Below, in pieces: positions 1 through 18,239 of a stretch of DNA of 64,000 nt. Positions within the stretch are counted from its first letter, which is position 1, and every line of letters begins with the position of its first letter. Both the position numbers and the translations under genes were made by a program. The notes beneath the pieces are model-generated. The model ran no database searches. It was given only the letters and a program-made list of their open reading frames with translations, and was not told where the DNA came from. The stretch covers positions 6,752,001-6,816,000 of the forward strand of contig OY970194.1 of assembly GCA_963708075.1 (NCBI GenBank), given 5' to 3'. This DNA is from Sedimentisphaerales bacterium (lineage in GTDB: Bacteria > Planctomycetota > Phycisphaerae > Sedimentisphaerales > Anaerobacaceae).

Positions 1-611
1 CAGTTCTTGGGCGGCGCGATCCGGCGAAGGCGGTCGAGCTGTCCTATTTCCTTGAGGCGTGCGTAGATAAGCTGCCAGGCGCAGGGGACGTCCGGCCGGA
101 CCTCACAGCGGTCCTCGCAAGACCCACCGCACGGACCGTTGAGCATCCGCTTCGCGCACCGGGTGACGGGGCAAATGCCGCCGTACTCGTGCAGCACGCA
201 TGCCCCACAGGCGGCACATTTCTCCGTCCAGATGCCTTGCTCCTCCAAGATGCCGATGAACGCCGTGTCCAGACCCGCATAGACGGGCGTGTTGTGATAA
301 CGTTCCGCGACGGCTTGAACGCCGGCGCCACAGCCCAGCGAAAGGACCGCCTCATTCCTCTGGATGGCATCGGCCGCCTGCTCAATGAAGACGTTGTCGC
401 ACTGACGCTCGATGGTCAGCTCCTCGACTGCCAGATCGACGCCCTGCAGCCGCGATGAAATGCGCAGGGCTGAACTGATGATGCCGACCTCACGTTCGCC
501 ACCGGCCAGACAGACCGTCACGCACGTTCCACAGCCCAGCACGAGCAGCTTCTTGTGCCCCTTGACGATATCCAACAGCTCCGGGATCTTCTTTCTTTCG
601 GCAACGATCAT
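1..611 (-). CDS. metV: MetV-like methylene-THF reductase Fe-S/Zn subunit (MTHFR C-terminal-domain protein), 3' end outside window
   Basis: Manual translation from ATG at 611 (overlaps mvhD stop, ATGA): MIVAERKKIPELL...LGCGTCVTVCLAGG...RQCD...SLGCGAGVQ...CAACGAC...GGICPVTRCAKRMLNGPCGG...CEV...PCAWQLIYARL. Absent from the ORF track because its stop lies outside the window. Confidence 0.85.
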   Translation of the reverse strand, partial: MIVAERKKIPELLDIVKGHKKLLVLGCGTCVTVCLAGGEREVGIISSALRISSRLQGVDLAVEELTIERQCDNVFIEQAADAIQRNEAVLSLGCGAGVQAVAERYHNTPVYAGLDTAFIGILEEQGIWTEKCAACGACVLHEYGGICPVTRCAKRMLNGPCGGSCEDRCEVRPDVPCAWQLIYARLKEIGQLDRLRRIAPPKN

Positions 612-1129
612 GAAGTCTTCTCCACTTTCTTCGATCGCGGCTTGCGAATTGCGGACTGCGGATTCCAAGTCGACGCATCAATCTGCGATTCGGGCTGTTT
701 AGCCTTGTGGCCGTTGCGGGTGACGGGGCTGGGGCCGAGCTTGCGAACGGTCTCGACCATGTCAGTGATGGCGTCTGACAGAGGTCGCGCCATAGCCGCC
801 GAGATATTGACCATGCGCAGGCGTTCCTTCCCCAGGCCCATCTCCTCCAGCATGTCGCGCATGTACTGGACTCGCCGCTTGGCGTAGAGGTTGCCACTGG
901 TGTGGTGGCAGCCGCCTTCGAGGCAGCCGGCCACGAGGACACCGTCCGCGCCGGTCTCGAATGCCTTGATCAGGAATTCGGTCTCCAGCCGCCCCGTGCA
1001 GGGCGTGCGGATGATGCGGACGTTCGGCGGATACTGAATCCGCATCGTGCCCGCCAGGTCCGCCGCCGCATAGGCACAGTAGTGGCAGCAGAAGGCCAGG
1101 ACTCTCGGTTGGAATTCGGGTTCTTCCAT
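608..1129 (-). CDS. mvhD: MvhD/FlpD-family hydrogenase iron-sulfur (2Fe-2S) subunit
   Basis: AFCCHYCAYAAADLAG...RIIRTPCTGR...GADGVLVAGCLEGGCHH..GN signature; lies directly after hdrA. Confidence 0.92.
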   Translation of the reverse strand: MEEPEFQPRVLAFCCHYCAYAAADLAGTMRIQYPPNVRIIRTPCTGRLETEFLIKAFETGADGVLVAGCLEGGCHHTSGNLYAKRRVQYMRDMLEEMGLGKERLRMVNISAAMARPLSDAITDMVETVRKLGPSPVTRNGHKAKQPESQIDASTWNPQSAIRKPRSKKVEKTS

Positions 1130-1134
1130 ATGAT

Positions 1135-4100
1135 TTATGATACCTTAACCGCTACCTTCTCCTTTGATACTCCGGCGCCGTCGTCGAAGAGCGTGCGGAT
1201 CATCACTCGGAACTGGTCGGTCTCAAAATGGTTCAGTTGGATCGCCCGTGCTGGGCACTCGGAGGCGCAGATGCCGCAGCCCATGCACTTCGCCGCTTCG
1301 ATCTGGCCCTTGCCATCCAGGTTGCAGAACGGGGCGCCGTATGGACAGACGTGCACGCACGTCATGCACGAAATGCACTTGCTCTGATCGACGCGAGAGA
1401 CCTGCGGGCTGACGTCGAGGTGTGTCTTGGATAACACGGTCGCCGCCCTGGCCGCGGCTGCTCGCGCCTGGGCGATGCTCTCGTCGATGAACTTCGGCGA
1501 GTGCGCCAGGCCGCACAGGAAGATACCTTCGGTGGCAAAATCCACCGGCCGCAGCTTCATATGTGCCTCGACGTAGAAGCCATCCGCATTGAGCGGCACT
1601 TTGAGCATATCGGAGACTCGCTTATTGTTCTGGCGGTCAGCCTCAATGCCCGTGCTCAAGACGACCAAGTCCGTCTCGATATCGATCGGCTCGGGGAAGT
1701 CCGGACTGTTGACGCTGACCTTGAGCCCACCAGTCTCGGACACGACCGGCGGCCGCTCCGGCGTATATCGAAGGAATACCACCCCTGCTTCGCGGGCCTT
1801 CTTGTAGTAGATCTCCCGGAAACCGTAGGTCCGGATGTCGCGATAAAGGACGAAGACATCGGTGTCGGGCGATATCGCCTTGATGGCCAGTGCGTTCATG
1901 ACGGCCATCGAGCAGCAGATGCGGCTGCAATAGGGCCGCTCCTCATCACGCGATCCGGCACACTGAATCATGACAACGTTCTTGAGCCCCGCCAGCAACC
2001 GCCCCTCATGAATTTGCTGGTCCAGGTCAACCTGGGTGGTGACGTTTGGTGATGAGCCCCCCAGGAACTTCGTCGTCTGGGCCTTCTCGGCACCGGTCGC
2101 GACGATCACGGCGCCAGCACTGACTTCGGATTTCCGGCCGTTGCAGGACAGAGTCGCATGGAACTCGCCGATGTGGCCTTTGACCTCCGCCACGTCCGTC
2201 GCGAGGAACACATCGATATTCTTGTGCTCCTGCACTTGTTTGATCAGGCTCGCCGTCAGGCCGGCGACGTCGGTGTCTTCCAGCGTGTGATGAATGTCAT
2301 AGAGATGTCCGCCCAATCGCTGCGTTCGCTCCACGAGGTGGACCTTGAAACCCTGATTGGCGAGGGCCAGCGCCGCGGTCATGCCAGCCAGGCCGCCGCC
2401 GATGACCAGGCCTTTCTGATCGACGGCCAACGTGCCTGGCTCCAGAGGCGACAACAGGTGCGACCGTGCCACCGCCATCTTGACCAGCTCCGTCGCTTTC
2501 TGCGTGGCGATCTCGGGCGAGCCGGAGTGCACCCACGAGCATTGGTCGCGGATGTTCGCCATCTCGAAGAGGTATGGATTGAGGCCCGCCTCGCGCATCG
2601 TCTCGCGGAACAGCGGCTCATGTGTCCGCGGCGTGCAAGAGGCGACCACGATGCGGTTGAGCCGGTGCTCCACGATCTGCTGGCGGATGTTCGACAAGCT
2701 TGTATCCGAGCAGGTGAACATGGTGTGGGTCGCGAAGACCACGCCACGCTCGGCCTCGATGTCCTTGGTTACGCGCTCCACATCGATCACCGAGCCAATG
2801 TTCCGGCCGCAGTGGCACACGAAGACACCGATACGCGGCTCTTCGTCCGTGACATCGTGCTCATCAGGGTACTTCTTTGTCACCGTCCGCGTGTTGCGCG
2901 CCGACGCCAACAGTTCCATCGCCATGGAAGCGGCGCCGCTGGCCTGCATCACGGTCTCGGGAATGTCCTTCGGCTCCTGGAACGCCCCACCGACGAACAC
3001 GCCCGGCTGGGACGTGGACAGAGGCTGCGAACGCTGCGTCGCGCAGAAGCCGTATTCGTTGAGCTCGATGCCGAGCCGTGAAGCAAGTTCGACGGCGGTG
3101 GCGGAAGGCTCCAAGCCGACGGCCAGCACGACAAGGTCGAAGTCCTCCTCTCGCAGCTTGCCGGTCTCGTCCACGAAGCGGGCACGCGGATTCATCGTCC
3201 CCGGCATCTGGACAATGCGCGATGGGATGCTCTTGACATAGCGGACGCCGTTTTGATTCTTGGCCCGCTCGTAGTATTGATCGAAATCCTTGCCGTGGGC
3301 GCGGATATCCATATAGAAGATCGTCGCTTCCAGGCCCGGCGTGTGGTCCTGGGCCACCATGGCTTGTTTCGTCGAGGCCATGCAGCAAATCGACGAGCAA
3401 TATTCGTTCCCGCACTTGGAATCGCGCGAGCCGACGCACTGAATCCACGCCACCCTCTTGGCCTCGCGACGATCCGAGAGCCGCACGATGTGTCCCTCGA
3501 ACGGCCCGGCGGCCGACAGCATCCGCTCGAACTGGACGCTCGTGACCACGTTCGGATATCGTCCCCAGCCGAACTCGCCCTTGCGGCTCGCGTCGAATTC
3601 CTCGAAGCCGGTGGTCAGAACGACCGAGCCGACCTCCAGCTCGACCGTCCGCTCTCCCATGGTGTGATCGATCGCATTCTGCTTGCAGGCCTCCACGCAC
3701 TCCTTGCACTCCGAGCACAGGGCGCAGTTCAGGCACCGTTCCGCCTCAGCCAGTGCCTGCTCCTCCGTCAGACCCGTCTCCACTTCCTTGAAGCTGCCGA
3801 CTCTCTGGGCCACGGGCAGCTCGCCGGCCTTCGCGCGAAGCTTCTCCTCGATATCGTCCGGCGGGGGAAGCAGTTCCTCCGGAACCGGCTTGACCGTGCC
3901 CTCGAACCGCTGAGAGACCATGTCCTTGCCGTTCAGATACCGCTCAATGGACTCCGCCGCTCGCTTGCCGGCCGCCACCGCTTCAATCACCGACTTGGGC
4001 CCACTCACTGCATCGCCCCCGACGAAAATCCCGTCCAGCGATGTCTGGAGGGTCACCGGGTCCGCTTTGAAGTATCGGCCCTGGGTCTGCGCTCCGACAT

Positions 4101-5619
4101 GGCTCATGAATGCATCGTCGCTGGTCTGTCCGATGGCGGTGATGATCTGATCGGCTTCGATGGACAGCCACTGCTGCTCGTCATAGACTGGATTGAATCG
4201 CCCGTCGGCGCCAAAGACCTGCGTGCATTTCTTTAGCTCGATGCCGGCGACGCTGCCGTTGCCGAGGATTCTGCGAGGTCCCCAGCCGTTTCGGAACGTG
4301 ATGCCCTCTTGCAGGGTCGCCTCGACCTCTTCGGGATAGGCGGGCATTTCGTGTCGCTGTTCGAGCGACACCATCTCGACACTCTTGGCCCCGAGCCGCA
4401 AGGCGGTGCGGGCTACATCCACGGCGACGTTGCCGCCTCCGATGACGACGACTCTCGCCTTGACCTCGGGCTTGCTGCCCGTCGAGCCGGCTTGACATAG
4501 GAAATCGACGCCCTGGAGGACGCCCGGCTTGTTCTCCCCTTCCACACCGAGCAGGCGGCCCTTGGCGACGCCAGCGCCGATGAAGACAGCGTCATTGTCT
4601 TTACGCAGCTTCTCGATGGTAGTGTCTTTTCCGACGCGGCAGTTGAAGACAAAACGCACGCCCTTACGCCGGATGAGCTCGACCTCGTGATCCAGCACCT
4701 TCTTCGGCAGTCGATACTCCGGAATGCCATAGCGGAGCATGCCGCCCGCCGCCGGTTGGGCCTCGTAGACCGTCACGGCAAAGCCCTTGTCGGCAAGATC
4801 GCTCGCGACAGTCAATCCTGCCGGGCCGGCTCCGATGACGGCCACCTTCTTGGCGCCGGCTGCGGGCTTCTTCTCCGGAGGCAGGCTCAGTTTGCCCGCC
4901 TCCAGCATTTGCACTTCCTGATCAGAGGCGAAACGCTTGAGCAGCCGGATGGCGATCGTGTCGTCAGCCTTGCCTCGCGCGCACTTGCTCTCACAGGGAT
5001 GGGTGCAAATCCGGCCGCAGATCGCCGCCAGCGGGTTGCGCTCGCGGATCAGGTTCACCGCCTTGAGGTATTCCTTCTTCTTGATGAGCTGCACGTAGCC
5101 CTGCACGTTGACATTCGCGGGACAGGCCACTTTGCAGGGCGAATGGCCGTTCTTGAGAATGCCGAAGATGTTCGGCGTCGCCTGGGCGTAGTGCTTGGCG
5201 ATGGCCTTGCGCTTGCCGAGCTCGCGGTCAAAATGATCCGGAATCTGCACAGGACAGGCATTGGTGCACTCACTGCAGCCGTTGCACTTGGTCTCATCCA
5301 CATACCGCGGATACCGTTTGACGGTGGCTTTGAAGTTGCCCGGCTCGCCCTTGAGGTCGGTCAACTCGGACATCGTCAGGATTTCGATGTTCAGGTTGCG
5401 GGCACACTCGACGAGCTTGGGCGACACGATGCACGTGGCGCAGTCGCCGGTCGGGAAGGTCTTGTCGAGGTGGGACATCATGCCGCCGATGGCCGCCTCG
5501 CGCTCGACGAGATAGACCTTGAAGCCCGCGTTGGCCAGATCGAGCGACGCCTGCACGCCGGCGATTCCGCCGCCCTGCACGAGCACCGCACCTGTTTTCT
5601 TCTGACCGTTGTCACTCAT
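1135..5619 (-). CDS. hdrA: Large HdrA-like flavoprotein (1494 aa) with inserted GltD-like NAD(P)H/FAD module and two HdrA-type halves (HdrL-like)
   Basis: GGGIAG, LDKTFPTGDCATC, SPCKVACP...AICGRICTHPCE (GltD Fe-S), GAGPAG, GGGNVAVDVAR, two IQC.GSRD...YCS.ICC motifs, CHCGRNI, ASCTPRTHE, ANIRDQCSWVH, several CxxCxxCxxxCP ferredoxin motifs. Confidence 0.92.
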   Translation of the reverse strand: MSDNGQKKTGAVLVQGGGIAGVQASLDLANAGFKVYLVEREAAIGGMMSHLDKTFPTGDCATCIVSPKLVECARNLNIEILTMSELTDLKGEPGNFKATVKRYPRYVDETKCNGCSECTNACPVQIPDHFDRELGKRKAIAKHYAQATPNIFGILKNGHSPCKVACPANVNVQGYVQLIKKKEYLKAVNLIRERNPLAAICGRICTHPCESKCARGKADDTIAIRLLKRFASDQEVQMLEAGKLSLPPEKKPAAGAKKVAVIGAGPAGLTVASDLADKGFAVTVYEAQPAAGGMLRYGIPEYRLPKKVLDHEVELIRRKGVRFVFNCRVGKDTTIEKLRKDNDAVFIGAGVAKGRLLGVEGENKPGVLQGVDFLCQAGSTGSKPEVKARVVVIGGGNVAVDVARTALRLGAKSVEMVSLEQRHEMPAYPEEVEATLQEGITFRNGWGPRRILGNGSVAGIELKKCTQVFGADGRFNPVYDEQQWLSIEADQIITAIGQTSDDAFMSHVGAQTQGRYFKADPVTLQTSLDGIFVGGDAVSGPKSVIEAVAAGKRAAESIERYLNGKDMVSQRFEGTVKPVPEELLPPPDDIEEKLRAKAGELPVAQRVGSFKEVETGLTEEQALAEAERCLNCALCSECKECVEACKQNAIDHTMGERTVELEVGSVVLTTGFEEFDASRKGEFGWGRYPNVVTSVQFERMLSAAGPFEGHIVRLSDRREAKRVAWIQCVGSRDSKCGNEYCSSICCMASTKQAMVAQDHTPGLEATIFYMDIRAHGKDFDQYYERAKNQNGVRYVKSIPSRIVQMPGTMNPRARFVDETGKLREEDFDLVVLAVGLEPSATAVELASRLGIELNEYGFCATQRSQPLSTSQPGVFVGGAFQEPKDIPETVMQASGAASMAMELLASARNTRTVTKKYPDEHDVTDEEPRIGVFVCHCGRNIGSVIDVERVTKDIEAERGVVFATHTMFTCSDTSLSNIRQQIVEHRLNRIVVASCTPRTHEPLFRETMREAGLNPYLFEMANIRDQCSWVHSGSPEIATQKATELVKMAVARSHLLSPLEPGTLAVDQKGLVIGGGLAGMTAALALANQGFKVHLVERTQRLGGHLYDIHHTLEDTDVAGLTASLIKQVQEHKNIDVFLATDVAEVKGHIGEFHATLSCNGRKSEVSAGAVIVATGAEKAQTTKFLGGSSPNVTTQVDLDQQIHEGRLLAGLKNVVMIQCAGSRDEERPYCSRICCSMAVMNALAIKAISPDTDVFVLYRDIRTYGFREIYYKKAREAGVVFLRYTPERPPVVSETGGLKVSVNSPDFPEPIDIETDLVVLSTGIEADRQNNKRVSDMLKVPLNADGFYVEAHMKLRPVDFATEGIFLCGLAHSPKFIDESIAQARAAAARAATVLSKTHLDVSPQVSRVDQSKCISCMTCVHVCPYGAPFCNLDGKGQIEAAKCMGCGICASECPARAIQLNHFETDQFRVMIRTLFDDGAGVSKEKVAVKVS

Positions 5620-6477
5620 AGACAGCCTTGACCACCTTTTCCGGCGAGATCATGAGCTTGTTCAAGCCGAGCCTCTGGGCGCGATGCCGAGGCACAGCCC
5701 CAGCAGTTGCGTGATGTAGAGGACCGGCATGTCGTAGCGGTTGCCTTTGCTCTTGGCGATGTCGAGCTGCCGCATGTCGAGGTTGATCTGGCACATGGGA
5801 CAACTAACGGCGATGCAATCGGCGCCGGCCAGCTTCGCCATCCCGACGATCGAGTCCGTGAGATTCACGACCACATCGGTCCGCGACATGGACAGGCCGC
5901 CGCCGCAACATTCCACCTTGTGGGGCCATTCGAGGGCCGTGCCGCCCAGGGCCGAAACCAATCGATCCAGCGAGCTTGGGTTCTCCGGGTCATCGAAACC
6001 CGTGACCTCGCTGGGCCGAACCAGGAGGCAGCCGTAGTAGCTGGCCACCTTCATCCCGGCCAGCGAGCCGTGCAGGGCCTCTTGAATCGTATCGGCCCCC
6101 ACGTCATCCAGAAGGACTTCGAGCAGGTGACGCACGTTCACCGAGCCGTCATAATCCCGGCCCACCGCCTCGGCCACTCTGGCCCGCATCTGCCTGCTCG
6201 CGGCGATCTCGTGATTCGCCACTTTCATCCGGTTGTAGCAAGCTGCACAGTTGACGACCAGGTCGAGGCCCATGTCCTTGGCCTTGACTAAGGTCGCCAC
6301 GGGCAGGGCCGCCGCCAGAACGTGGTCAGTCTGATGCCCCGCCGTGGCTCCGCAGCACGTCCAGCCTTGCGGCTCGATCAGCTCGATGCCCAGCGCCTCG
6401 GCGACGGCCAGTGTCGATTGGTGCATGTCCCGCGCGGTGGACTCCGCAGAGCAACCTGGAAAATACGCGTATTTCAT
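5612..6477 (-). CDS. hdrB: Heterodisulfide reductase subunit B-like (two CCG domains); one frameshift near 5678
   Basis: MKYAYFPGCS, WTCCG, CAACY, YYGCLL, CCGG, SCPMCQ.NLD, PVLYITQLLGL. The normal tail (RLGLNKLMISPEKVV) continues in another frame to 5612. Confidence 0.9.
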
Positions 6478-7040
6478 TTGCCCGCCCCGTCCTCTTTCGT
6501 CTTCTTGAAGATTCGACACACGGTCTTGCGATCCGCCCCGCGAGGAGGCAGCAATGCGATCTTGCGTTTCTTCAGCATGGTGGGGAACTTCTCGGTGTCG
6601 GCCATGAGCTTGCCGCTGCCGAGCTTGTAGCCGGCGATCATGGCGACGTCGTACGTCCGGCCGAAGATCTCGACGGTCTTGAGGAACGCCCGATTGAACA
6701 GCGGCACGTTGCCCTCGGGCCTGGCGGCGCCGCGATGGACCGCCAGCTTCCGAAGGGCGTCCATAACCGCCGCGACGTCGATCCCCATCGGGCATCGCGT
6801 CGAGCAGGTCTCGCACGAGACGCACATCCAGAGGATGTCGCTGTTGAGAAGCTCATCACCCATGCCCAAGTGCAGCCGCCGCACCATCTCCGAAGGCGGG
6901 CACTGGGCCATGCCCGACACCGGGCATCCGCTCGTGCACTTCTTGCACTGGTAGCACACGCTCAGGTCCACCCCCGAGATCTCCTGCACCTGCTTGAGAA
7001 TGCCCCGAGTGGACTTATTCTTTGAAATCGTTATCGCCAT
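6474..7040 (-). CDS. hdrC: Heterodisulfide reductase subunit C-like 2x[4Fe-4S] protein
   Basis: CYQCKKCTSGCP and WMCVSCETCSTRCP; overlaps the hdrB start. Confidence 0.9.
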   Translation of the reverse strand: MAITISKNKSTRGILKQVQEISGVDLSVCYQCKKCTSGCPVSGMAQCPPSEMVRRLHLGMGDELLNSDILWMCVSCETCSTRCPMGIDVAAVMDALRKLAVHRGAARPEGNVPLFNRAFLKTVEIFGRTYDVAMIAGYKLGSGKLMADTEKFPTMLKKRKIALLPPRGADRKTVCRIFKKTKEDGAGK

Positions 7041-7070
7041 GTCTTGGATTCACCCACACGAATCGATGTC

Positions 7071-9725
7071 TCAACTCTTTGCCGCCACCTGTTTCTTCTC
7101 TTTGCCGGGTAGGGCCGCCACTTGGGCCAGCGCCTTGAGTGCGACCGGCGCCACCTTGCGATAGACTTCCTCCGGCTTGCACACCCGGCCATCGATTGTC
7201 ACCAGATCCTCGACCCTGATCCCGAACAGCTGCTCGTTCTCCTCCAGATAGGGCAGGATCAAGTTCCAATCCGCCTGTGTGAGCGCCGTGAACTTGCCGC
7301 CGTTGAGCTGTTGATCGACCACTTTGTGGTGCGGGTCGCGGACATAGATCGCGCCGCCGGAAGCGAGCGAGAACAGATTGCTGCCGGGGTACGGCTCGGG
7401 CAGCGGAACGACTTTGCCGTCCTCGTCGATCCGGATTCCGTTGAGGATCACGAAGCCGCCGCCGGCGAGCGGATCGCCCGCCATGAAGGACTCCGCCAAA
7501 AAGTCCAGGCACGTGCCATTGATGACGACCTTCGGCCGGCCAACGGAATTGATCAGAGGCCGGCCCGCCCCGTTGCCGAGGATGAAGATGGTGCCGCCTT
7601 TGGCCCCGTACATGAAGGTCTGGCCGAAGTCACCGTGAACGACGAGCTTGCCGCGTTTGATGATCTGGCCCAACTGGTCCTGGGCGTTGCCGTGCACGGT
7701 GATGGTCAGGCCGTCGATGCCGGAGGCGAGGTAGTCGCCGGAGCTGCCGTAGATGTCGATGGTCACGTCCTCGGTGTCGGGTCCGAGCCCGCAGCCGTGG
7801 AACCGCTGCCCCCGCAGGTCGAAGGTGATGAACCGTCGCCAGCCTTTGAGAAACGCGTCGCACAGGAGCGTCGAGTCGCAGCCTTCGCCTTCCGGCGGGA
7901 AGCCCAGCGCATCGATGACCAGCGTGGTCTCGCCGCGGGCAGGTCCGCGCAGGTCGCCCTTCGTCTTGAGATCGATCAAGCGATAGGGTCCGAGGCTGGG
8001 GTCGTCCGCATTGATCTTCGGCAGCGATCGCAGGAGCCGGAACAATTCGCTTCGAACGAGATGCAGGATGTGGCTGCGTCTCTTGCCACCGGTGGGGTAC
8101 TTGCGGTCGTTGAGCAGCGTATAAGCCGCGATCACCGTCGCCGTGTTCTCCCGCGTGGCCCCCAGCTCTGCCAGGGTCCGGCACACCGCCCGAAACACGT
8201 CGAAGGACCACGCCTTGGCGCCGTCGCGGACAAACTCGTACAAGCCGACCACGCTACCGGCCCGCAGACATCCGTCCAGCTTCTCTTCCACTGCTTTGTC
8301 CCCGCAAAGGGAAGCGGGGTCCGCCGAGAAGTCACAGGACTGGCTCCATTTTGGCATCGGCACAGGCTGGCCGAACTTGTCCGTACAAGTCATACGAAGC
8401 GTACCACCGGCGTCCTTCTCGAGATTGAAGAGGAAGGCGCCGCCGTCCGTGTAGCTGCCGCCGCGGGCGTTCCAGTAGCGGTCGGCGACCGGGCAGATTC
8501 GCTCGTCCTCCTTGGCTAGGCTCTGTAGCGTCGCGTCGATCGCCTGCTTTTCTGAAGCGATCAGGCCGACCTGGACCTCGCCCTCGGACAAGGCGAACAC
8601 CTGCGGCCGGAGCATCGCGGTATCTGTAATGCCGATAAGCTGGAACTTGTTTTCCCTCGCCACGTTGCGGGCGATGATGAAGAACCACGGGCCGTCGGGC
8701 GAGCCGTGGATGTGCGTCGTCTGGATGGCCTTGTAGATCCGCTGCTTCTCCTCTGGCAGCCGGTCGAAGTCCAGCTCGGTCGTCGGGGCCAGGGCCTCGA
8801 TGATGTATTCGAGCGGGTAGTGATACGTCCGGTCCAGCAGATCGAACAGCAGGGCCGAGACCTCTGTGTCGGTGAGGAACTGCGGATAGATGTTCCGCTG
8901 CTTGAGGTACTCGCTGACGGAGTGATAGTTCGCGAAGTCGCCGTTGTGAACGAGTGCCATGTTCATCGCGGCAAACGGATGCGCCCCGCCGGGGTGCCAG
9001 ACGCGGCCCTTCGTCGGGTAGCGCTGATGCGCGATCCAGGCGTGTGCGCAGAGGCCCTCGATTTTGTAGTACTTGACGATGGCCTCGGCGTAGCCGACGA
9101 CCTTGAGAATCATGATGTTCCGGCCGTGAGACAGCACGAACGCCCGCTGCTTGCCGAGCGAGGCGTAGAACTTCTGGTTCAGCTTGAAGCTGTTCTGGCT
9201 TACGTACTCATCTTCGGCCGCCCGCCGGTCCATTGTCTTGAGACCGTTCTTCTGAACGAAGTCATCGAGCACCGTCGGCTTGACGCGGACGAAGTAGCGC
9301 CACACGTCCGGCGGCTTGACCTCCAGGTCGCCCACCGCCTGCCAGTCGTCCACCTTGTCCAATGCGGCGGATGCGGCCACGTCGAAATGCGGCGTGATGA
9401 ACTCCTTCTCGACTTCCGCCCGGACATTCGGGTCCAGCAGCGCGACGTGCAGCATGTAGTGCTCGTCGAGCACCTGCCGGCTGACGCCCAACTGCTCGGG
9501 CAGCAGTCCAACTGCCGCAATGCCGCCGCCTTTGCCGTTGCCGCGATTGTGCATCTGCTTGGACGGCTCGTAGATGTGCCGACCGGGCACCGCCTTCGTG
9601 CAGCAGAAACCGACAACCCCGCAGCCCCCCTCATCTTCCGCCTTGCGCACCATCTGAGGCCACCCGCACGCGTCGGCCAGGGTCTTCCTCGAATGTGACA
9701 ACTGTTGTATCAACTGCTCGTTCAC
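7071..9725 (-). CDS. Glutamate-synthase-like subunit: class II (Ntn) glutamine amidotransferase fused to GXGXG beta-helix domain
   Basis: EDEGGCGVVGF (N-terminal nucleophile Cys after a short propeptide), HNRGNGKGGG, IAHQRYPT, AHPF, LVHNGDFANY, TDTEV; C-terminal GSSGDYLASGIDG/GNAQD/GDFGQTFMYGAKGG repeats. Confidence 0.85.
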   Translation of the reverse strand: MNEQLIQQLSHSRKTLADACGWPQMVRKAEDEGGCGVVGFCCTKAVPGRHIYEPSKQMHNRGNGKGGGIAAVGLLPEQLGVSRQVLDEHYMLHVALLDPNVRAEVEKEFITPHFDVAASAALDKVDDWQAVGDLEVKPPDVWRYFVRVKPTVLDDFVQKNGLKTMDRRAAEDEYVSQNSFKLNQKFYASLGKQRAFVLSHGRNIMILKVVGYAEAIVKYYKIEGLCAHAWIAHQRYPTKGRVWHPGGAHPFAAMNMALVHNGDFANYHSVSEYLKQRNIYPQFLTDTEVSALLFDLLDRTYHYPLEYIIEALAPTTELDFDRLPEEKQRIYKAIQTTHIHGSPDGPWFFIIARNVARENKFQLIGITDTAMLRPQVFALSEGEVQVGLIASEKQAIDATLQSLAKEDERICPVADRYWNARGGSYTDGGAFLFNLEKDAGGTLRMTCTDKFGQPVPMPKWSQSCDFSADPASLCGDKAVEEKLDGCLRAGSVVGLYEFVRDGAKAWSFDVFRAVCRTLAELGATRENTATVIAAYTLLNDRKYPTGGKRRSHILHLVRSELFRLLRSLPKINADDPSLGPYRLIDLKTKGDLRGPARGETTLVIDALGFPPEGEGCDSTLLCDAFLKGWRRFITFDLRGQRFHGCGLGPDTEDVTIDIYGSSGDYLASGIDGLTITVHGNAQDQLGQIIKRGKLVVHGDFGQTFMYGAKGGTIFILGNGAGRPLINSVGRPKVVINGTCLDFLAESFMAGDPLAGGGFVILNGIRIDEDGKVVPLPEPYPGSNLFSLASGGAIYVRDPHHKVVDQQLNGGKFTALTQADWNLILPYLEENEQLFGIRVEDLVTIDGRVCKPEEVYRKVAPVALKALAQVAALPGKEKKQVAAKS

Positions 9726-9728
9726 GGC

Positions 9729-11234
9729 CTATTGCCCCACGTCATTCGTATAGTCAAGATGCATCAGGAGGTCGGTCCGGCCGCGCAGCTCGCTGACGCT
9801 TCGCATCCCGAATCGCCGCAGAATATCGATCAGCTCGTCATGCCATGCGTTGTACAGATTGATCATCCGCTGCGTGCCCCAGTCGAGATCCATCTTGCCG
9901 CAGAGTTCAGAGTCCGTGGTGGCGATTCCGCGCGGACAGCCCCGGCCGCTCTCGCACCGGCTGCACCGAACACAGCCCAGTGCGACCAACTCCGCCGTCC
10001 CGATCACGACGCCGTCGGCGCCCAGGGCAATCGCCTTGGCCACGTCATGAACGGTCCGCACGCCGCCGCTGGCCATCAATGTGACTTTGTCCCGGACGCC
10101 TTCGGCCTTGAGGAACCCGTGCACCTTGCCAATGGCGTATTCGATTGGCATGGCGATGTTCTTCTTCGCGATGTCGGGCGAGGCGCCGGTGCCACCGTAA
10201 CCGCCGTCGATGTGAATGATGTGCGTGCCGGCGGCATAGCTGCCCACCGCGACCATGTCCACATCCGTTGGGGTCGAGACCTTCGTCGAGAGCAGGGCCC
10301 GCCGGTTGATGTGCTTGATCCAGTCGAGGTGCTTCATGTGGTCCTCGATGGAGTAGACACTGTGGAACGGGAACGGCGAGAACAACGAGATCCCGAGCAC
10401 CGCCTCGCGCATCCGGGCCACGGCAGGGGTGTTCTTGTCGCCGAGCAGGTGGCCGCCAAGCCCCGGCTTGGCGCCCTGGGCATATTTGAACTCGACGATC
10501 GGCACGCGTTGGATCGTCTCTTCGCGGACGCCGAACAGGCCCGTGGCGACCTGCGTGATCACGTGGTCGTCATAGGGCCGCATCCGCTCCATGTAGCCAC
10601 CTTCACCCGTACAGGTGAAGGTGTTCCACGCCACGGCGCATCGGGCCTTCGAGAGCTGCGTGACGTTACTGACGGAGCCGAACGACATGCCGCCGCCGTA
10701 CCAGGGGACGTCGATCCGGATTTGAGGCCGGCCGTCGCCCCGGCGGTTGAGCTTGATGCTCGTGTCGATCTGGTCCTTCGACACGCCATTCGAGGGCTTC
10801 TCCGGGAACTTGAACCGCAGCTTGTCGAACCCGCCGCCGGAATTGCCGCACTGGTAGTCGAAGCCGTACTCTGTCGCGGGGACGCTTCCCGTCTCGGCCA
10901 TCATCCAGGTGGCGAGGATCATGTCGGCCGTCCAGCGGTAATCGCCCAGGATCTGCATCATCGGGTTTTCGACGATCTGCAGCGCCGACTTGGGACAGGC
11001 GGCCACGCAATAGTGATTCGTCTCTTCGCACGCCGCGCCGATGCAGTGGTACGACTTCGGCTCGCAGAAGTACTTGTACCCCGGCTTGCGGACGTGCACA
11101 CCGTACGGGCAAAGCTGGGCACATTTGCCGCAGTGGATGCAGTCGTGGTTGCGCCGGATGATGTATTTCGAGACTTCGTTCCGGTAGCGCGGCGGGGCCG
11201 GCGCGACTTGCGCTCCACTACAACCTGCGGCACA
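9729..11234 (-). CDS. Glutamate-synthase FMN-binding subunit with N-terminal ferredoxin; true start uncertain (probable frameshift ~11208)
   Basis: CIHCGKCAQLCP upstream of the tracked GTG; GGMSFGSVS, CTGEGG, QVATGLFGV, KYAQGAKPGLGGHL, IDGGYGGTGASP, ASGG, KAIALGAD, CVRCSRCESGRGCPRGIATTD. Confidence 0.85.
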   Translation of the reverse strand, partial: CAAGCSGAQVAPAPPRYRNEVSKYIIRRNHDCIHCGKCAQLCPYGVHVRKPGYKYFCEPKSYHCIGAACEETNHYCVAACPKSALQIVENPMMQILGDYRWTADMILATWMMAETGSVPATEYGFDYQCGNSGGGFDKLRFKFPEKPSNGVSKDQIDTSIKLNRRGDGRPQIRIDVPWYGGGMSFGSVSNVTQLSKARCAVAWNTFTCTGEGGYMERMRPYDDHVITQVATGLFGVREETIQRVPIVEFKYAQGAKPGLGGHLLGDKNTPAVARMREAVLGISLFSPFPFHSVYSIEDHMKHLDWIKHINRRALLSTKVSTPTDVDMVAVGSYAAGTHIIHIDGGYGGTGASPDIAKKNIAMPIEYAIGKVHGFLKAEGVRDKVTLMASGGVRTVHDVAKAIALGADGVVIGTAELVALGCVRCSRCESGRGCPRGIATTDSELCGKMDLDWGTQRMINLYNAWHDELIDILRRFGMRSVSELRGRTDLLMHLDYTNDVGQ

Positions 11235-11273
11235 CGCGTCTTCAGTGTGTTGGCCGGCAGGATGTCCCGAAGA

Positions 11274-12674
11274 TCACTTTCTTTTACCGAAAAGCTTGCC
11301 AAACGTTTCCTCCTCGAGGTCCTCGAAGAACATCGCGCGGCCGATGTCGCCGCGCAGCCGGCGGACTTCGCGCATGCCCATCGCCCCCATGACCTCGATC
11401 AATTGATCGTGCCAGGCGGCGATCAGGTTCACCATGCGCCCGACGGCATAATCAAAGGGCACATCATCCAGCCTGGCGGGACATGGCATGCCCGCCTCGC
11501 AGCGATCACAGAGGTGACACTCCAAGGCGATCATCAGCGGCAGGTCGATGCTGACTAAGTCGGCGCCGCAGATGATGGCTTTGGCCATGTGCTCGGGCAG
11601 GGCAATCCCACCGCCAGCGATGAGCGTGACTTCGTCCCGAATTCCTTTTTCGATCAGCGCCGTATGAATCCGGCGGATCATGTCCCTCAAAAACAAAGGC
11701 TTTTCTACGCCGATCTGGTTGCCGTTGAGGTCGGCCACGACGTGGATCGCCTCTGCCTCGGCCAGAGTAGCCAACTCAATGGCCCGCTGCACACCTTTGG
11801 CATCCAGCGGTACGCGCACTGAGACAACGATTCCGGGATGCTTGTCCTTGAGCCGCTTGATGCGGTCGATCACGTCGGGGCCGTCATAGGTCTCCACCAG
11901 CCGGGTCTGGGCCAATGATTCCGGTGGGACAACAGGCTGCTCCGGGTTCAAACAGAACGCCATGTGGGGTGCCAGACGATCTACATCCTCCCCGACAAAG
12001 GGCCAGTCGGATGGGCCGGCCAGGGCAATGATGTCCGTGCGTACGGCGGCCTCGCGAAGGGCGGGACCCAGCTTGGGCAACGTGTGACGCGGCGAGGACA
12101 GATTCAGGATCAACGGCATCTGGATCGACAGGCACGAGGCGTCGATTCGGAACGACTGGTCCTGGAAGTTCAGATAGGCGGGCTTGCGACCGATGTCCGC
12201 CGCCGTGCTGATGTACTCGCGGCCGTGGATGCCGTCGCGTGTGGGCCGAACGATCTCGGACATGTCGGTCCACATGCTGTCGAAACCCGGCCCGCTGAAG
12301 GGGCCTCTGTACCCGGCGCCGGAGACGGGAATCTTGGCCGTCTCCGCCTGGGTCCACGTCGTATGAATGATCTCGGGCGTCCAGTAGCTGTTGCCCAGGG
12401 CCTCGTAGATCGGATTGACGACCAGCCGCAGCAGGCCCTTCGTGCAATTCTGAACGCAGGAGAAACAGCCCATGCACTCGAAGAACAGAGCATCGACCGC
12501 CTCCAGTGTGCGGATATACTCTGCTTCTTGCCGATAGCGATCGTACACGCAGGCCTTCTTGACGCAGTTGTGACACCGGGCACAATCTTCGCGCCAATCG
12601 ACCACGCCGAACTTGCCGATGCGAGGTCGGCGCGGCGGCACGGGTTTCGTTTCAATGTGGTATTTCTCAGGCAT
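11274..12674 (-). CDS. Second glutamate-synthase FMN-barrel paralog with N-terminal ferredoxin, catalytic motifs degenerate
   Basis: CARCHNCVKKAC, CMGCFSCVQNC, GIRDEVTLIAGGGI, KAIICGAD, CHLCDRC...CP; lacks GxMSFG, TGEGG and QGAKPG motifs. Confidence 0.75.
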   Translation of the reverse strand: MPEKYHIETKPVPPRRPRIGKFGVVDWREDCARCHNCVKKACVYDRYRQEAEYIRTLEAVDALFFECMGCFSCVQNCTKGLLRLVVNPIYEALGNSYWTPEIIHTTWTQAETAKIPVSGAGYRGPFSGPGFDSMWTDMSEIVRPTRDGIHGREYISTAADIGRKPAYLNFQDQSFRIDASCLSIQMPLILNLSSPRHTLPKLGPALREAAVRTDIIALAGPSDWPFVGEDVDRLAPHMAFCLNPEQPVVPPESLAQTRLVETYDGPDVIDRIKRLKDKHPGIVVSVRVPLDAKGVQRAIELATLAEAEAIHVVADLNGNQIGVEKPLFLRDMIRRIHTALIEKGIRDEVTLIAGGGIALPEHMAKAIICGADLVSIDLPLMIALECHLCDRCEAGMPCPARLDDVPFDYAVGRMVNLIAAWHDQLIEVMGAMGMREVRRLRGDIGRAMFFEDLEEETFGKLFGKRK

Positions 12675-12689
12675 AGCTCTTCTTGCACC

Positions 12690-13595
12690 CTACAGGCCGG
12701 CAGCCGCACGCAGTTTCGACACGATCTTCTCTCGGCCTCCCGAGAGGATGTGAATGCCCCGGACGCCCTTCATACCTTTGAGCTTGCCAATGATCTCGGC
12801 ACAAATCTTCAAGCCTTCTTTCTCTTGAGCGTCTGCGTTTCCGGCGGCCTTGAGTCTTGCCACCAGGGCATCGGGAATTCGCAACTCCGTATGAGCCTCG
12901 CGGAGCTTCTCGGCCTCTTCGGCACTGCTCAGGGGCAAGATGCCCACCAGGATCGCGGTCTTGTCCACCAGTTCCTCTTTGCGGGCTGCATCAAGCCAGA
13001 TGGCAAACTCATCTATGTCAAAGACAGGCTGCGTCTGAATGAAGTCCGCCCCGGCCCCGACCTTCTTGGCGAGCTGGATCATGTTCAGCTCCAGCGGTCG
13101 AAGGTACGGGTTCGCCACCGTCCCAATCAGCATGGAGAACTTGCCCGAGACGGCAGTCCCATCCAGGAGCGTACCTTTGTCACGCATCTGCCTGATGGTC
13201 CAGATAACCTGGATCGCATCGAGGTCATACACATTGGCCGAGTCGGAGCACCCGGTGAGGGTCTGGTGATGGCCCGACGTACACACGATGTTCTTGATTC
13301 CCAGCACGGCGGCGCCCAGCAGGTCCGACTGGATCGCAATGCGGTTGCGGTCGCGGGTGACTACCTGATAAATGGGCTCACGTCCCAGCCCGAGAAGCAC
13401 CGATGACGCGGCGAGACTTGACGTGGCGATGCCGCTGTGATTGTCAGCCACGCTGACAGCAGCGAGACTGTCGCCCATCGCATCCGCCGCCGCCTTGATC
13501 GCGGCCCCCTCGGCCGCCGGAGGCGGCAGGATTTCCGCTGTCACGACAAATGCGGCCGACTGAAGGGCACTGGCCAACTTGCTGTCTGGTTTCAT
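12690..13595 (-). CDS. metF: Methylenetetrahydrofolate reductase (MetF family)
   Basis: FVVTAEILPP, TRDRNRIAIQSDLLGA, VYDLDAIQ, ANP, KKVGAGADFIQTQPVFD, GIHIL. Confidence 0.88.
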   Translation of the reverse strand: MKPDSKLASALQSAAFVVTAEILPPPAAEGAAIKAAADAMGDSLAAVSVADNHSGIATSSLAASSVLLGLGREPIYQVVTRDRNRIAIQSDLLGAAVLGIKNIVCTSGHHQTLTGCSDSANVYDLDAIQVIWTIRQMRDKGTLLDGTAVSGKFSMLIGTVANPYLRPLELNMIQLAKKVGAGADFIQTQPVFDIDEFAIWLDAARKEELVDKTAILVGILPLSSAEEAEKLREAHTELRIPDALVARLKAAGNADAQEKEGLKICAEIIGKLKGMKGVRGIHILSGGREKIVSKLRAAAGL

Positions 13596-14053
13596 GCGGC
13601 ATTCTCCCGACGGGTGCCCGTTCGCGCATCTGCCAGAACAGTCCGGGCCGGCTTGGTCCTGACAGAATGCACTCGGTCAAGCTTCGTTTGGAGTTGCTGG
13701 ACAGCGTCGATCAACGGCTCGCTCTGTCCCTGTTCTTTTGTCGCGACAACGACGCGACCCTTGCCAAAACCGATTTCGTCCAACAACTCCTCCACGGCCT
13801 CGGCCCGCTTGGACGCCCGGAGATTGCCCTCCAGATGCTTGCACTGGGACTCGGGACAAACACACAGCACCACGCCATCGGCGCCCTTTTCAAACGCCTT
13901 GAGCAGGTATGGAATCGTCGCTTTGCCGGAGCAAGGCAGGCTGAGTGTCTTAAGCCCGTCCGTGTCGAGCCGGGTTTGCAACTCCTGGAGCTCGGCATCC
14001 GTCACACTGTTGGCACAGTAAAAGAGATGGATCGTTGGAGCTTGTTTATCCAT
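13592..14053 (-). CDS. mvhD: Second MvhD-like Fe-S subunit
   Basis: LFYCANS, SLPCSGK, KAFEKGADGV, C...CKHLEGN, LLDEIGFGKGR. Confidence 0.8.
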   Translation of the reverse strand: MDKQAPTIHLFYCANSVTDAELQELQTRLDTDGLKTLSLPCSGKATIPYLLKAFEKGADGVVLCVCPESQCKHLEGNLRASKRAEAVEELLDEIGFGKGRVVVATKEQGQSEPLIDAVQQLQTKLDRVHSVRTKPARTVLADARTGTRRENAA

Positions 14054-14238
14054 AGCGCACTTGACCCAAACGGCCTATACAGGCATAATAGTCTGAGAAG
14101 CAGCCCGAGCTGCTTCGGCCACCGATTCGGACATCCGACTCGGTCATCGAAAATCAAAACAGGAGGGGCGGGGCTTGCCGTTTCCGGCTGCCGCTAAACA
14201 GCTTGGCAAGCCTCGCCCACAACCCAATGCCCTAAGTC

Positions 14239-14329
14239 ATGGAATAATGGAACGATGGAACAATGGAGTATTGGGGCACGCACCGGCCGCTTCCCCATCA
14301 TTTCATCATTCCGATATTCCGTCATTCCA
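14239..14329. repeat. Inverted array of 8-bp repeats (ATGGAAYR ... CATTCC-like)
   Basis: atggaata-atggaacg-atggaaca-atggagta, then the complementary catcattt-catcattc-cgatattc-cgtcattc. Confidence 0.7.
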
Positions 14330-14347
14330 ATCTCCCGTCGTACATCT

Positions 14348-14650
14348 TCACTGCCGGCTGAACCGGGCGACGAACTCCAGGTGGCCCCTGAGGACCCACA
14401 TCTTCTCCAGAAACTCCGGCCAGCCGCAGGAGGGCTGGAAACCTTCCGGGGCCTCCGAGTCAATCACAGTGCCGGAGACGACGACCCCTTCGAGTTCTCC
14501 CCAGAGGTCCGCCCAGACACTCAAGGCATCCTGCACAACGTTGCCGGTGACACCTCGAAAATGGGCCAACTCGGCCTGGGGCAAGGGTGCTTTGGCGATG
14601 ATCTGCGATTTCTCGCCCTCAAACTTGACCAGCTTCACACCCTGATTCAT
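14348..14650 (-). CDS. Hypothetical ~100-aa protein, first gene after the sigma-54 promoter
   Basis: ORF MNQGVKLVKFEG...CGWPEFLEKMW; same strand as the operon, between the promoter and mvhD2. Confidence 0.6.
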   Translation of the reverse strand: MNQGVKLVKFEGEKSQIIAKAPLPQAELAHFRGVTGNVVQDALSVWADLWGELEGVVVSGTVIDSEAPEGFQPSCGWPEFLEKMWVLRGHLEFVARFSRQ

Positions 14651-14717
14651 ACTTCCGGTCCAATATGTGTCCACCCAGCGCCTGGGTACTCACATTGCCC
14701 AGGCCGCTATCGATCAG

Positions 14718-14733
14718 TGCAAGAACCGTTCCA
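14718..14733 (-). promoter_or_regulatory. Sigma-54 -24/-12 promoter of the Glt-Met-Hdr operon
   Basis: Minus strand TGGAAC-GGTTC-TTGCA (one mismatch to TGGCAC-N5-TTGCW); IHF-like TTTCAATGGTTTA near 14772-14785; tandem putative UAS at 14830-14868. Confidence 0.75.
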
Positions 14734-14926
14734 GCGTGTCCGAACCATCGATGTGTCTGTATCTCCTGATATTTCAATGGTTTACGTGGAATGATCGGGA
14801 ATGCACTCTCAGACCTGCCCGGGGAGAATTGGCACAGAAAGTGGGCCACGGATCAACAAATGAGCCACAGTAGATGGAGAGGCTGCCTGCTGGTGCTTAT
14901 GGTGGTGCTTGTACTTGTGGGCCGAA

Positions 14927-17617: not shown

Positions 17618-17768
17618 TCCACAAATTTGTAGATGACAATGCCACATTCTACGAATGTGTGGCCATGAGGGCCCTGTCTGTGGAGCCATGGGTTAGCTGT
17701 AACCGGCTGCTACTCAGCGAGTTATGCCTTTTTCTCCTCTTCTCACGTCGTTGGGTATGGGATTTGCA
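17618..17768 (+). promoter_or_regulatory. Putative sigma-54 promoter cassette (2 UAS + GCTGTAAC + -24/-12) for the GGCT gene
   Basis: TCCACAAATTTGTAGA (17618), TCTACGAATGTGTGGC (17648), GCTGTAAC (17696), GGGTAT-GGGAT-TTGCA (17753-17768). Confidence 0.6.
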
Positions 17769-17825
17769 AGATCAATCAGTCAGGGACGGCGTCGGCCGGC
17801 GAAACGGTCTTGCAGGGCAGGGGAT

Positions 17826-18239
17826 ATGAACCTGTTCACTTATGGATCGCTGATGTTTGTGGAGGTCTGGTCGCAACTCGTGCGAGGCGACTACGTGAAG
17901 CGTCCTGCGCGTCTGCACGGGTTCACCCGTCGGCGAGTGCACAAAGACGTCTATCCGGTCATCTTCAAATCGAACAACAGCGAGTGGGTGGATGGTTTCA
18001 TCTACTTCGGCGTTAGTGATGAGGACTTGCGCCGGCTCGATGCCTTCGAGGCCGACGCCTACGACCGACAAGCTCACACCGTGGTTGTCGAAGGCTTTGA
18101 GAAGCACGTAGCCGAAGCCTATGTCCTGAAGGACTGCTACAAGTACCTGGTCAACAACAGCGAGTGGGATCCGCAGTGGTTCGCCCGCGAGGCCCTGCCG
18201 TTCTTCATCCACACCTATCGGGGCTTCACCGGACGCTGA
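17826..18239 (+). CDS. Gamma-glutamylcyclotransferase (AIG2/GGACT-like)
   Basis: MNLFTYGSLM, ARLHGFTR, YPVI, LDAFE..AYDR motifs. Confidence 0.85.
   Translation: MNLFTYGSLMFVEVWSQLVRGDYVKRPARLHGFTRRRVHKDVYPVIFKSNNSEWVDGFIYFGVSDEDLRRLDAFEADAYDRQAHTVVVEGFEKHVAEAYVLKDCYKYLVNNSEWDPQWFAREALPFFIHTYRGFTGR

Follow-up and report, generated by a model that had tools for sequence, protein, structure and literature searches.

A predicted nitrogen-regulated split glutamate synthase encoded with an HdrL-type electron-transfer module in a Sedimentisphaerales bacterium

Glutamate synthase (GOGAT) is the main gate through which nitrogen enters biomass, and it is known to draw electrons from NAD(P)H via GltD, from ferredoxin or from F420. 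What does a glutamate-synthase-like enzyme do when it is encoded in one operon with MetF, MetV, HdrABC and MvhD? This question is raised by a stretch of 64,000 nucleotides (nt) from a Sedimentisphaerales bacterium (contig OY970194.1, positions 6,752,001 to 6,816,000), referred to here as the window. The source genome is a single 7.5-Mb contig, and an array of minus-strand genes fills the first 17.2 kb of the window, as read from open reading frames (ORFs), Pfam and NCBIfam. Eleven of these genes run in one direction: hyp, mvhD2, a metF-like gene, FMN1, FMN2, a GATase+GXGXG fusion, hdrC, hdrB, hdrA, mvhD and metV. This is the composition that a preliminary description of the DNA, made from its letters alone, had given. 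We propose that the operon encodes a nitrogen-regulated split GOGAT that would receive NADPH electrons through an HdrL-type module instead of a free GltD, possibly with electron bifurcation. The probability of this reading is put at roughly 60%. The genes of the operon, listed from its end to its beginning, are as follows.

1..611, minus strand: metV, MetF partner with a Cys-rich N-terminus (Pfam DUF5981/MTHFR_C, 1.4e-35)
608..1129, minus strand: mvhD, [2Fe-2S] adaptor of Hdr complexes (Pfam FlpD, 1.9e-50; NCBIfam VhuD-like)
1135..5619, minus strand: hdrA, HdrL-type, 1494 amino acids (aa) (Pfam Pyr_redox_2, Fer4_20, Fer4)
5662..6477, minus strand: hdrB, with two complete CCG motifs (Pfam CCG x2; TIGR03288)
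6474..7040, minus strand: hdrC, 2x[4Fe-4S] (Pfam Fer4_8/17; TIGR03290)
7071..9725, minus strand: GATase+GXGXG fusion, 884 aa (Pfam GATase_6, GXGXG; PDB matches FwdC, GlmS)
9729..11273 (as assembled 9729-11099), minus strand: FMN2, catalytic glutamate-synthase subunit of the flavin mononucleotide (FMN) type (Pfam Glu_synthase, 3.8e-86, 290 bits)
11274..12674, minus strand: FMN1, degenerate FMN2 paralog (Pfam Glu_synthase, 7.5e-14, C-terminal part only, and Fer4_10)
12690..13595, minus strand: MetF-like flavoprotein (Pfam MTHFR, 88.9 bits)
13592..14053, minus strand: mvhD2, second MvhD-like adaptor (Pfam FlpD, 2.8e-21)
14348..14650, minus strand: hyp, 100 aa, gene closest to the promoter (without a match in Pfam or NCBIfam)

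The 884-aa protein was used to scan one genome per species, and 75 loci were obtained (L numbers below; carrier genomes have G numbers). Their labels are Planctomycetota, Chloroflexota, Thermodesulfobacteriota, other delta-proteobacterial groups, Spirochaetota, Acidobacteriota and others. By tblastn, the order mvhD2-metF-FMN1-FMN2-GATase/GXGXG-hdrC-hdrB-hdrA-mvhD-metV was found wherever the contig was long enough, and in the Desulfobacterales-type operons it is circularly permuted. Because the order is conserved in related loci from many phyla, the gene block is not a chance assembly, and the linkage of the Glt genes to metF and hdr extends well beyond close relatives. Identity between phyla is 57-70%. 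HdrABC, about 2400 residues in all, is kept across phyla at 50-87% identity, and all 34 operon HdrAs available at nearly full length are as long as the window protein. The 884-aa protein is rare in its own phylum, where 9 of 301 evenly drawn genomes carry it and three of these copies are distant (~30% identity). This rarity, together with the identity across phyla, fits a history of lateral spread. The carriers are uncultured anaerobes and include Dehalococcoidia, Syntrophales-like and Desulfobacterales-like bacteria, Phycisphaerae and Spirochaetota. One Chloroflexia metagenome-assembled genome (MAG), G004, has two operon copies on separate contigs (L004, L049), which could reflect duplication or redundancy of the bin. 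Simpler forms also occur. A short form without hdr, mvhD-metV-metF-FMN1-FMN2-GATase/GXGXG, is found at L056, L059, L065, L066 and L068, and a three-gene form, FMN1-FMN2-GATase/GXGXG, at L051, L063 and L064, to which L045 adds mvhD.

The Glt subunits retain most of what a glutamate synthase needs. In the amidotransferase part, CGVVGF with Cys35, HQRYPT, VHNGDF and TDTEV are conserved across 53 aligned sequences, the oxyanion Asn-Gly pair is present, and Cys35 in GGCGVVGF is kept in at least 90% of them. Cys35 is the predicted catalytic residue and would be exposed by the removal of a 34-residue propeptide. The GXGXG beta-helix domain occupies residues 642-808 of the 884-aa protein (Pfam 1.3e-14). 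FMN2 aligns to residues 882-1170 of the alpha subunit of Azospirillum brasilense GltS (1ea0, E 7e-52) and has the conserved blocks AQGAKPG, SPxxHxxYSIED and GGTGASP. At the GltS cluster site it carries C-x2-C-x2-C-x5-C, that is, four Cys against three in GltS. The similarity of FMN1 to FMN2 is confined to residues 73-134 and 333-442 (43% identity); in FMN1 the catalytic middle is missing, and two CxxCxxCxxxC motifs and a C-terminal Cys cluster are kept. The GltB central domain (PF04898) was not detected beyond a weak partial match in FMN2 of 24.8 bits, and FMN1 may take its place. Compared with A. brasilense GltBD (1ea0/2vdc/6s6s), the operon shares the FMN domain with its cluster Cys, the amidotransferase with an N-terminal nucleophile, the GXGXG domain and a GltD-like NADPH/FAD unit. 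It differs in distributing the four domains of the alpha subunit over three proteins, in having an amidotransferase of the PurF/GlmS-like GATase_6 type, and in embedding GltD within HdrA.

A second comparison is with the archaeal-type split glutamate synthase, which consists of separate GATase, ferredoxin-fused FMN and GXGXG proteins. Judged by this general architecture, the split domains and the ferredoxin-like Cys motifs at the N-terminus of the FMN subunit are shared. The window operon differs in the fusion of GATase and GXGXG, in the second, degenerate FMN paralog and in the linkage to MvhD, MetFV and Hdr. Five operon loci are also flanked by NrpR, whose family takes its name from nitrogen control in archaea.

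The HdrA protein is a tandem. Its first part is an HdrA-like flavin domain whose ferredoxin domain is interrupted, at approximately residues 150-650, by a GltD/NfnB-like unit with sites for FAD and for a dinucleotide (GGGNVA, GXGXXA). The second part, from about residue 955, is a complete HdrA with the CHCGRNI N-domain, the flavin domain and the C-terminal 2x[4Fe-4S] domain. In NCBIfam the protein matches HdrA2 with 983 bits in five stretches, and also gltA/GltD-type models. What characterises flavin-based bifurcating HdrABC complexes at the gene level is encoded here: HdrA with the flavin domain and the accompanying Fe-S set, HdrC, an MvhD adaptor, and two CCG motifs in HdrB. For hdrB, the true start is the ATG at 6477 (MKYAYFPGC), and both CCG motifs are intact. 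The window HdrA matches the type III or A9-TRX-C archaeal HdrA described from ANME-1 and Bathyarchaeota (PMC12054007, PMC9012536) and, as in the A9-TRX-C class, has a second, thioredoxin-reductase-like HdrA half. Unlike the archaeal type III protein, it is bacterial and encoded with a glutamate synthase, and its insert carries GXGXXA, the NADP-type motif by the rule given in PMC12054007, and not GXGXXG. The same source regards GltD-inserted HdrA as an acceptor of NAD(P)H. The window HdrA likewise matches a fusion of heterodisulfide reductase and glutamate synthase that is named 'HdrL' in the account of Desulfobacterium autotrophicum (PMC2702500).

The type IV methylene-tetrahydrofolate reductase (MTHFR) of Moorella thermoacetica, MetFV-HdrCBA-MvhD, uses the same six gene families and shares the order hdrC-hdrB-hdrA-mvhD-metV. 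PMC8760232 assigns the NADH site of that complex to HdrA and gives the second acceptor as unknown. The window operon adds mvhD2, FMN1, FMN2, GATase/GXGXG and hyp, and its metF stands apart from metV. Classical hdrCBA-mvhD-metVF clusters also exist among the carriers, and the genome G016 has two of them (L086 and L087). In L087 the HdrA high-scoring segment pairs abut with no GltD insert, and both clusters keep the Asp120 equivalent of MetF; the window has the insert and lacks this residue. The parts of the operon are of known kinds, and their combination is not a known one: a description of Glt genes inside an Hdr-MetFV operon was not found in full-text searches of open-access papers and bioRxiv, which agrees with the preliminary statement that a characterised complex of this composition is not known. 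In the same family of adaptors, five mvhD genes of the Desulfobacterales type have an in-frame TGA at the position where the window MvhD has Cys18 (FCCHY-C-AY), at L018:18666-19115, L024:13766-14230, L025:18668-19117, L030:7897-8352 and L034:11900-12349. This suggests a selenocysteine at a cluster-ligand position.

The genomic context connects the operon with nitrogen. Pfam was run on 4.5-kb flanks of 24 diverse loci, and 28 loci were scanned in all. In 11 of the 24, genes for nitrogen assimilation or nitrogen control lie beside the operon: glutamate dehydrogenase at L012, PII-glutamine synthetase (GS)-PII at L015, PII at L037, PII and Amt at L038, NrpR at L019, L028, L031, L040 and L075, Amt and GS at L066, and Amt and GS-III at L068. 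Among the three-gene and MvhD-only forms, L064 adjoins GS and L045 adjoins asparagine synthase (AsnB)-Amt-PII. The NrpR-type regulators (HTH_12 and NRD1_2) are immediate neighbours of the operon in MAGs of Chloroflexota and of delta-proteobacteria, at L019:20009-20998, L028:4516-5658, L031:4481-5629, L040:2167-3225 and L075:19839-20903. A census of glutamate synthases points in the same direction. The operon FMN2 is the only Glu_synthase match at E<=1e-30 in 28 of 50 carrier genomes (location of the match inside the operon was checked for the complete chromosomes G016 and G021 only), and the canonical GltB central domain exceeds 150 bits in only 11 of the 50. By these counts, carriers frequently show no glutamate-synthase candidate other than the operon. 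In the source genome there is also a canonical GltB (a 1553-aa frame); therefore, the operon would here be a second, regulated GOGAT. The idea that the GltD insert of HdrA replaces GltD in glutamate synthesis, one of two functions offered in the preliminary description, fits the nitrogen flanks, the many genomes with a sole FMN subunit and the classical L087 without an insert.

The other function offered was anaerobic turnover of methylamine or N-methylglutamate. Such an operon would encode an N-methylglutamate synthase like MgsABC and pass the methyl group to folate. MgsABC is generally described with the same three domain types (amidotransferase-like, GXGXG and FMN), and a MetF-like gene is present to receive the methyl group. 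The flanks speak otherwise: within 4.5 kb of the 28 loci, with whole genomes not searched, there was no gene like gamma-glutamylmethylamide synthetase (GMAS) or N-methylglutamate dehydrogenase, nor any pairing of a glutamine-synthetase-like GMAS with sarcosine-oxidase-like Mgd genes. The GS genes that do occur there accompany Amt, PII and NrpR, an ammonium-assimilation set. In addition, the full glutaminase motif set is kept and MetF lacks the folate Asp. The methylamine reading was rejected on this gene context and is highly improbable. Equally improbable is a catabolic role, in which the module would run in reverse, glutamate would be oxidized and the electrons would be confurcated onto NAD(P)+. 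The conserved, apparently active glutaminase domain and the linkage to GS, Amt, PII and NrpR point to assimilation, and the glutamine-dependent reaction is effectively irreversible, even if Hdr-type modules can run in either direction according to PMC12054007.

Whether the operon also handles one-carbon (C1) units depends on the MetF-like protein. Its residues were numbered by means of the E. coli-type paralog L082 against PDB 1zp3. In E. coli numbering, the equivalents of Glu28 and Gln183 are kept, and that of Asp120 is His109 of the window protein (CTSGHHQ), so the Glu28/Asp120/Gln183 set of type IV MTHFR is incomplete in the operon protein. In 43 operon MetFs, the Asp120 column contains Tyr (23), His (7), Asp (6), Asn (3), Phe (2), Thr (1) and Leu (1). 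Among the 37 long-type operons only L048 retains Asp, and the other 36 have lost it. All five short forms without hdr retain it, and in the trimmed L069 the residue is Asn. Asp is also kept in all 10 usable MetF paralogs outside the operon, taken from carrier genomes and from this genome, after row L085 had been dropped as a mis-picked ORF on the wrong strand. In 22 long-type MetFs, C105, G108, H110 and Q111 do not vary, whereas position 109 does. According to PMC11094777, Asp120 forms hydrogen bonds with the pterin at N3 and at the 2-amino group, and the D120N change lowered kcat to 0.3% and raised Km more than 40-fold. Asp120 is listed among four essential MTHFR residues in PMC11868366. At least two MTHFR matches are present in 47 of 50 carrier genomes, and the copy in the operon is a low-scoring extra paralog. 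A sequence search of the PDB returned no solved MetFV-type or Hdr-MetFV complex, and the MetF-like protein matched only ordinary MTHFRs there, at 1e-5 to 1e-7. Taken from sequence, the MetF of the long form is most likely a redox or structural adaptor and not a methylene-tetrahydrofolate reductase. Because Glu28 is kept in all 43 sequences and Gln183 in most, the pocket is, as far as these residues tell, altered rather than abandoned.

These data bear on a coupling of C1 and nitrogen metabolism, in which an active MetFV would share the Hdr core with GOGAT and, for example, the oxidation of methyl-tetrahydrofolate would drive glutamate synthesis. In its favour, the operon conserves MetF as well as MetV, with the equivalents of Glu28 and Gln183 retained, and acetyl-CoA synthase is found in 38 of 50 carrier genomes and in 2 of 14 control genomes. 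Against this, Asp120 is replaced by six different residues between invariant neighbours in the long type, other Asp-bearing MetF paralogs exist in 47 of 50 genomes, some of them in classical hdrCBA-mvhD-metVF clusters, and 12 of 50 carriers have no acetyl-CoA synthase match. On general grounds, the flux of nitrogen is also far below that of catabolic C1 units. The coupling is therefore doubtful for the long form; it may hold for the Hdr-less short forms, in which Asp120 is intact. Of the preliminary claim that the Glt enzyme is tied to a folate-C1/Hdr complex, the conserved MetFV, Hdr and MvhD partners across phyla are supported, and a working folate link is not. In a quick FMN2 tree, the main long-type clade (30 rows; Shimodaira-Hasegawa-like approximate likelihood ratio test, SH-aLRT, 98) contains no MetF known to carry Asp, and the short forms and L048/L052 fall outside it. 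The root of this tree is unsure owing to a very long outgroup branch, and the topology is suggestive of an order from the three-gene form to the short form and then to the long form. Further MetFV modules occur in the carriers (L086, L087 and L088 in G016, L089 in G011 and L090 in G015). They include GltD/NfnB-like-metV-metF trios and one classical cluster near acetyl-CoA synthase, and all keep Asp120.

For the split GOGAT fed through Hdr, the following steps can be hypothesized from the motifs. The sigma-54 promoter and a NifA-like GAF activator would switch the operon on in this Planctomycete. The fused GATase/GXGXG protein would hydrolyse glutamine at its N-terminal Cys after removal of the propeptide, and the ammonia would pass to FMN2. 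There, 2-iminoglutarate, formed from 2-oxoglutarate and the glutamine-derived ammonia, would be reduced to glutamate at the FMN, as the motif-level identity with GltS alpha implies. NADPH would enter at the GltD-like insert of HdrA, whose GXGXXA motif suits it. The electrons may then reach FMN2 via HdrA, MvhD/MvhD2, MetV, the MetF-like flavoprotein and the clusters of FMN1.

Part of this path was approached by complex prediction. FMN1, as the scored partner of MetF plus MvhD2 and run with our own 22-row alignments, scored 0.57, and the best of three controls, one of which had MetF swapped for an unrelated protein, scored 0.00. The runs agree in at least 37% of contacts, and the predicted local distance difference test (pLDDT) of the partner is at least 75. 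For calibration, 116 of 157 solved complexes attain the mark, as do 2 of 215 mismatched pairs; among scores of 0.60 or under, only 18 of the 157 solved complexes attain it, together with both mismatches. This is a hint that the degenerate FMN1 docks on the MetF-like protein.

The reaction of GOGAT with NADPH is estimated to release roughly 45-50 kJ/mol, which would put the acceptor couple far above NADPH. Bifurcation is proposed because this reaction is strongly exergonic and the Hdr hallmarks are kept: the module is built like bifurcating Hdr complexes, with two HdrA flavin domains, intact HdrBC and a C-terminal ferredoxin domain. In such a scheme, two NADPH would reduce 2-oxoglutarate plus glutamine and, at the same time, ferredoxin, so that energy would be recovered. 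An electron-bifurcating GOGAT that reduces ferredoxin from NADPH, with MetF as a former reductase serving as a flavin relay or acting on a non-folate substrate, is put forward tentatively. The simpler view is that Hdr, MvhD and MetFV only wire the Glt flavin to NAD(P)H or ferredoxin, without conserving energy. The Glt core works with simpler inputs, to judge from the Hdr-less three-gene and MvhD-only forms beside GS, Amt and PII, and the GltD insert of type III HdrA may block the ferredoxin site (PMC12054007). An HdrABC of about 2400 residues with two flavin domains, intact CCG motifs and a ferredoxin domain would, however, be costly as a mere wire, and the characterised HdrABC-type complexes treated in PMC6405883 and PMC8760232 are described as bifurcating. 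A non-bifurcating GOGAT is plausible, with a low probability.

The predicted regulatory features around hyp are as follows.

14054..14347, minus strand: structured leader between hyp and mvhD2 (folding z-score -4.2; conserved long stem)
14718..14733, minus strand: sigma-54 -24/-12 promoter element TGGAACGGTTCTTGCA (alignment of 9 loci)
14826..14868, minus strand: upstream block of TGGnCCA-type repeats, candidate activator-binding site (conserved columns in 9 loci)
14927..17246, minus strand: NifA-like sigma-54 activator (Pfam Sigma54_activat, GAF, AAA_lid_14)

In the promoter element, GG and TTG are invariant in all nine aligned Planctomycete loci, and L009 has a weaker -12 part (TTGT). A strict regular expression caught the element in 3 of 8 relatives, and the alignment revealed it in all 9 sequences. 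The activator consists of an N-terminal domain, GAF, AAA+ and a Fis-type helix-turn-helix (HTH), and it scores 503.9 bits against TIGR01817 nifA, just below the NCBIfam cut-off of 528.85. The presence of both a GG-N10-GC element and an AAA+ activator is consistent with a sigma-54 regulon, and the sigma-54 control suggested earlier for the operon is thereby strengthened.

Two reading frames are broken in the assembly. One is that of the activator, whose Fis-type HTH is shifted out of frame by an additional base at 15064; in the relatives the HTH is in frame. This break is probably an assembly error, because a 515-nt contig from run X1, possibly from the source sample (depth 3.3, one contig), is identical except that the base at 15064 is absent. 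The second break concerns FMN2. From the stop of FMN1 to the first FMN2 start codon (GTG at 11099) there are ~175 nt, and this stretch is conserved coding sequence with an apparent 1-nt indel near 11202-11215. The N-terminal segment ILPxNTLKTRVPQ...PAPPRYRNE...DCxxCGKCxxxCP is split over two frames in the window; in the relatives it lies in one frame and overlaps the 3' end of FMN1 by 28-115 nt. The ferredoxin-like motif DCIHCGKCAQLCP thus stands upstream of the first in-frame start, in a frame that is broken relative to all relatives. This too is probably a 1-nt assembly indel. If it were real, the first FMN2 Cys motif would be lost.

Several observations weigh against the assignment as a nitrogen-regulated, Hdr-fed GOGAT. 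Nitrogen genes are missing from the 4.5-kb flanks of 13 of the 24 loci, the incompleteness of MAGs weakens the sole-GOGAT counts, and the source genome has a canonical GltB of its own. FMN2 and the activator are each frame-broken in the assembly, and the predicted complex of FMN1, MetF and MvhD2 lends weak support. The intact CCG motifs of HdrB imply a substrate or a role that the proposed path does not name. Acetyl-CoA synthase in most carriers leaves a C1 link possible, with the count confounded by relatedness. Lastly, a pure adaptor role of MetF leaves the retention of Glu28 and, mostly, Gln183 unexplained, and for this reason a substrate site may persist in the protein.

If the proposed function is correct, the Hdr-linked GOGAT would be a further class of glutamate synthase, possibly the first to couple nitrogen assimilation to energy conservation by bifurcation, and a bifurcating form would pay energy back during nitrogen assimilation in energy-starved anaerobes. 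Metabolic models that label the genes of this operon as 'Wood-Ljungdahl MetF/Hdr' would be wrong. The locus also bears on which partners bacterial Hdr-MetFV-type complexes use.

The operon is compact, as had been proposed, apart from two places. ATGA overlaps join mvhD2/metF, hdrC/hdrB and mvhD/metV, and most remaining gaps are 3-42 nt; the exceptions are the FMN1-FMN2 stretch described above and a structured leader of 297 nt between hyp and mvhD2. The ATG of metV at 611 overlaps the mvhD stop and was set by MIVAERK in the relatives. The metV stop lies 57 nt beyond the window start, and the full gene was read in L076. The operon ends with metV, and the next gene, read beyond the window start, encodes an unrelated dockerin/FN3 surface protein.

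The leader folds far better than shuffled sequences. Its stem, GGGTTGTGGGCGAGGCTTGC ... GCAAGCCCCGCCCCTCC, persists in five Planctomycete loci, where base changes compensate one another, and a T-rich run comes after it. The counterparts lie at L001:5034-5320, L007:5417-5685, L008:5324-5592 and L072:5246-5570. It is absent from L009 and L050, where hyp abuts mvhD2. A scan of the promoter and leader region (13900-15200) with Rfam gave nothing at E<=1, and a terminator scan of 13900-15000 found none. The segment is a candidate attenuator or regulatory leader. The hyp protein, which has no usable match in the Protein Atlas either, is restricted to the Planctomycete versions of the operon, with 43-61% identity in 8 loci by tblastn. 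Just past the activator, in divergent orientation, lies a GGACT gene (gamma-glutamyl cyclotransferase-like) at 17724-18239 on the plus strand of the window.

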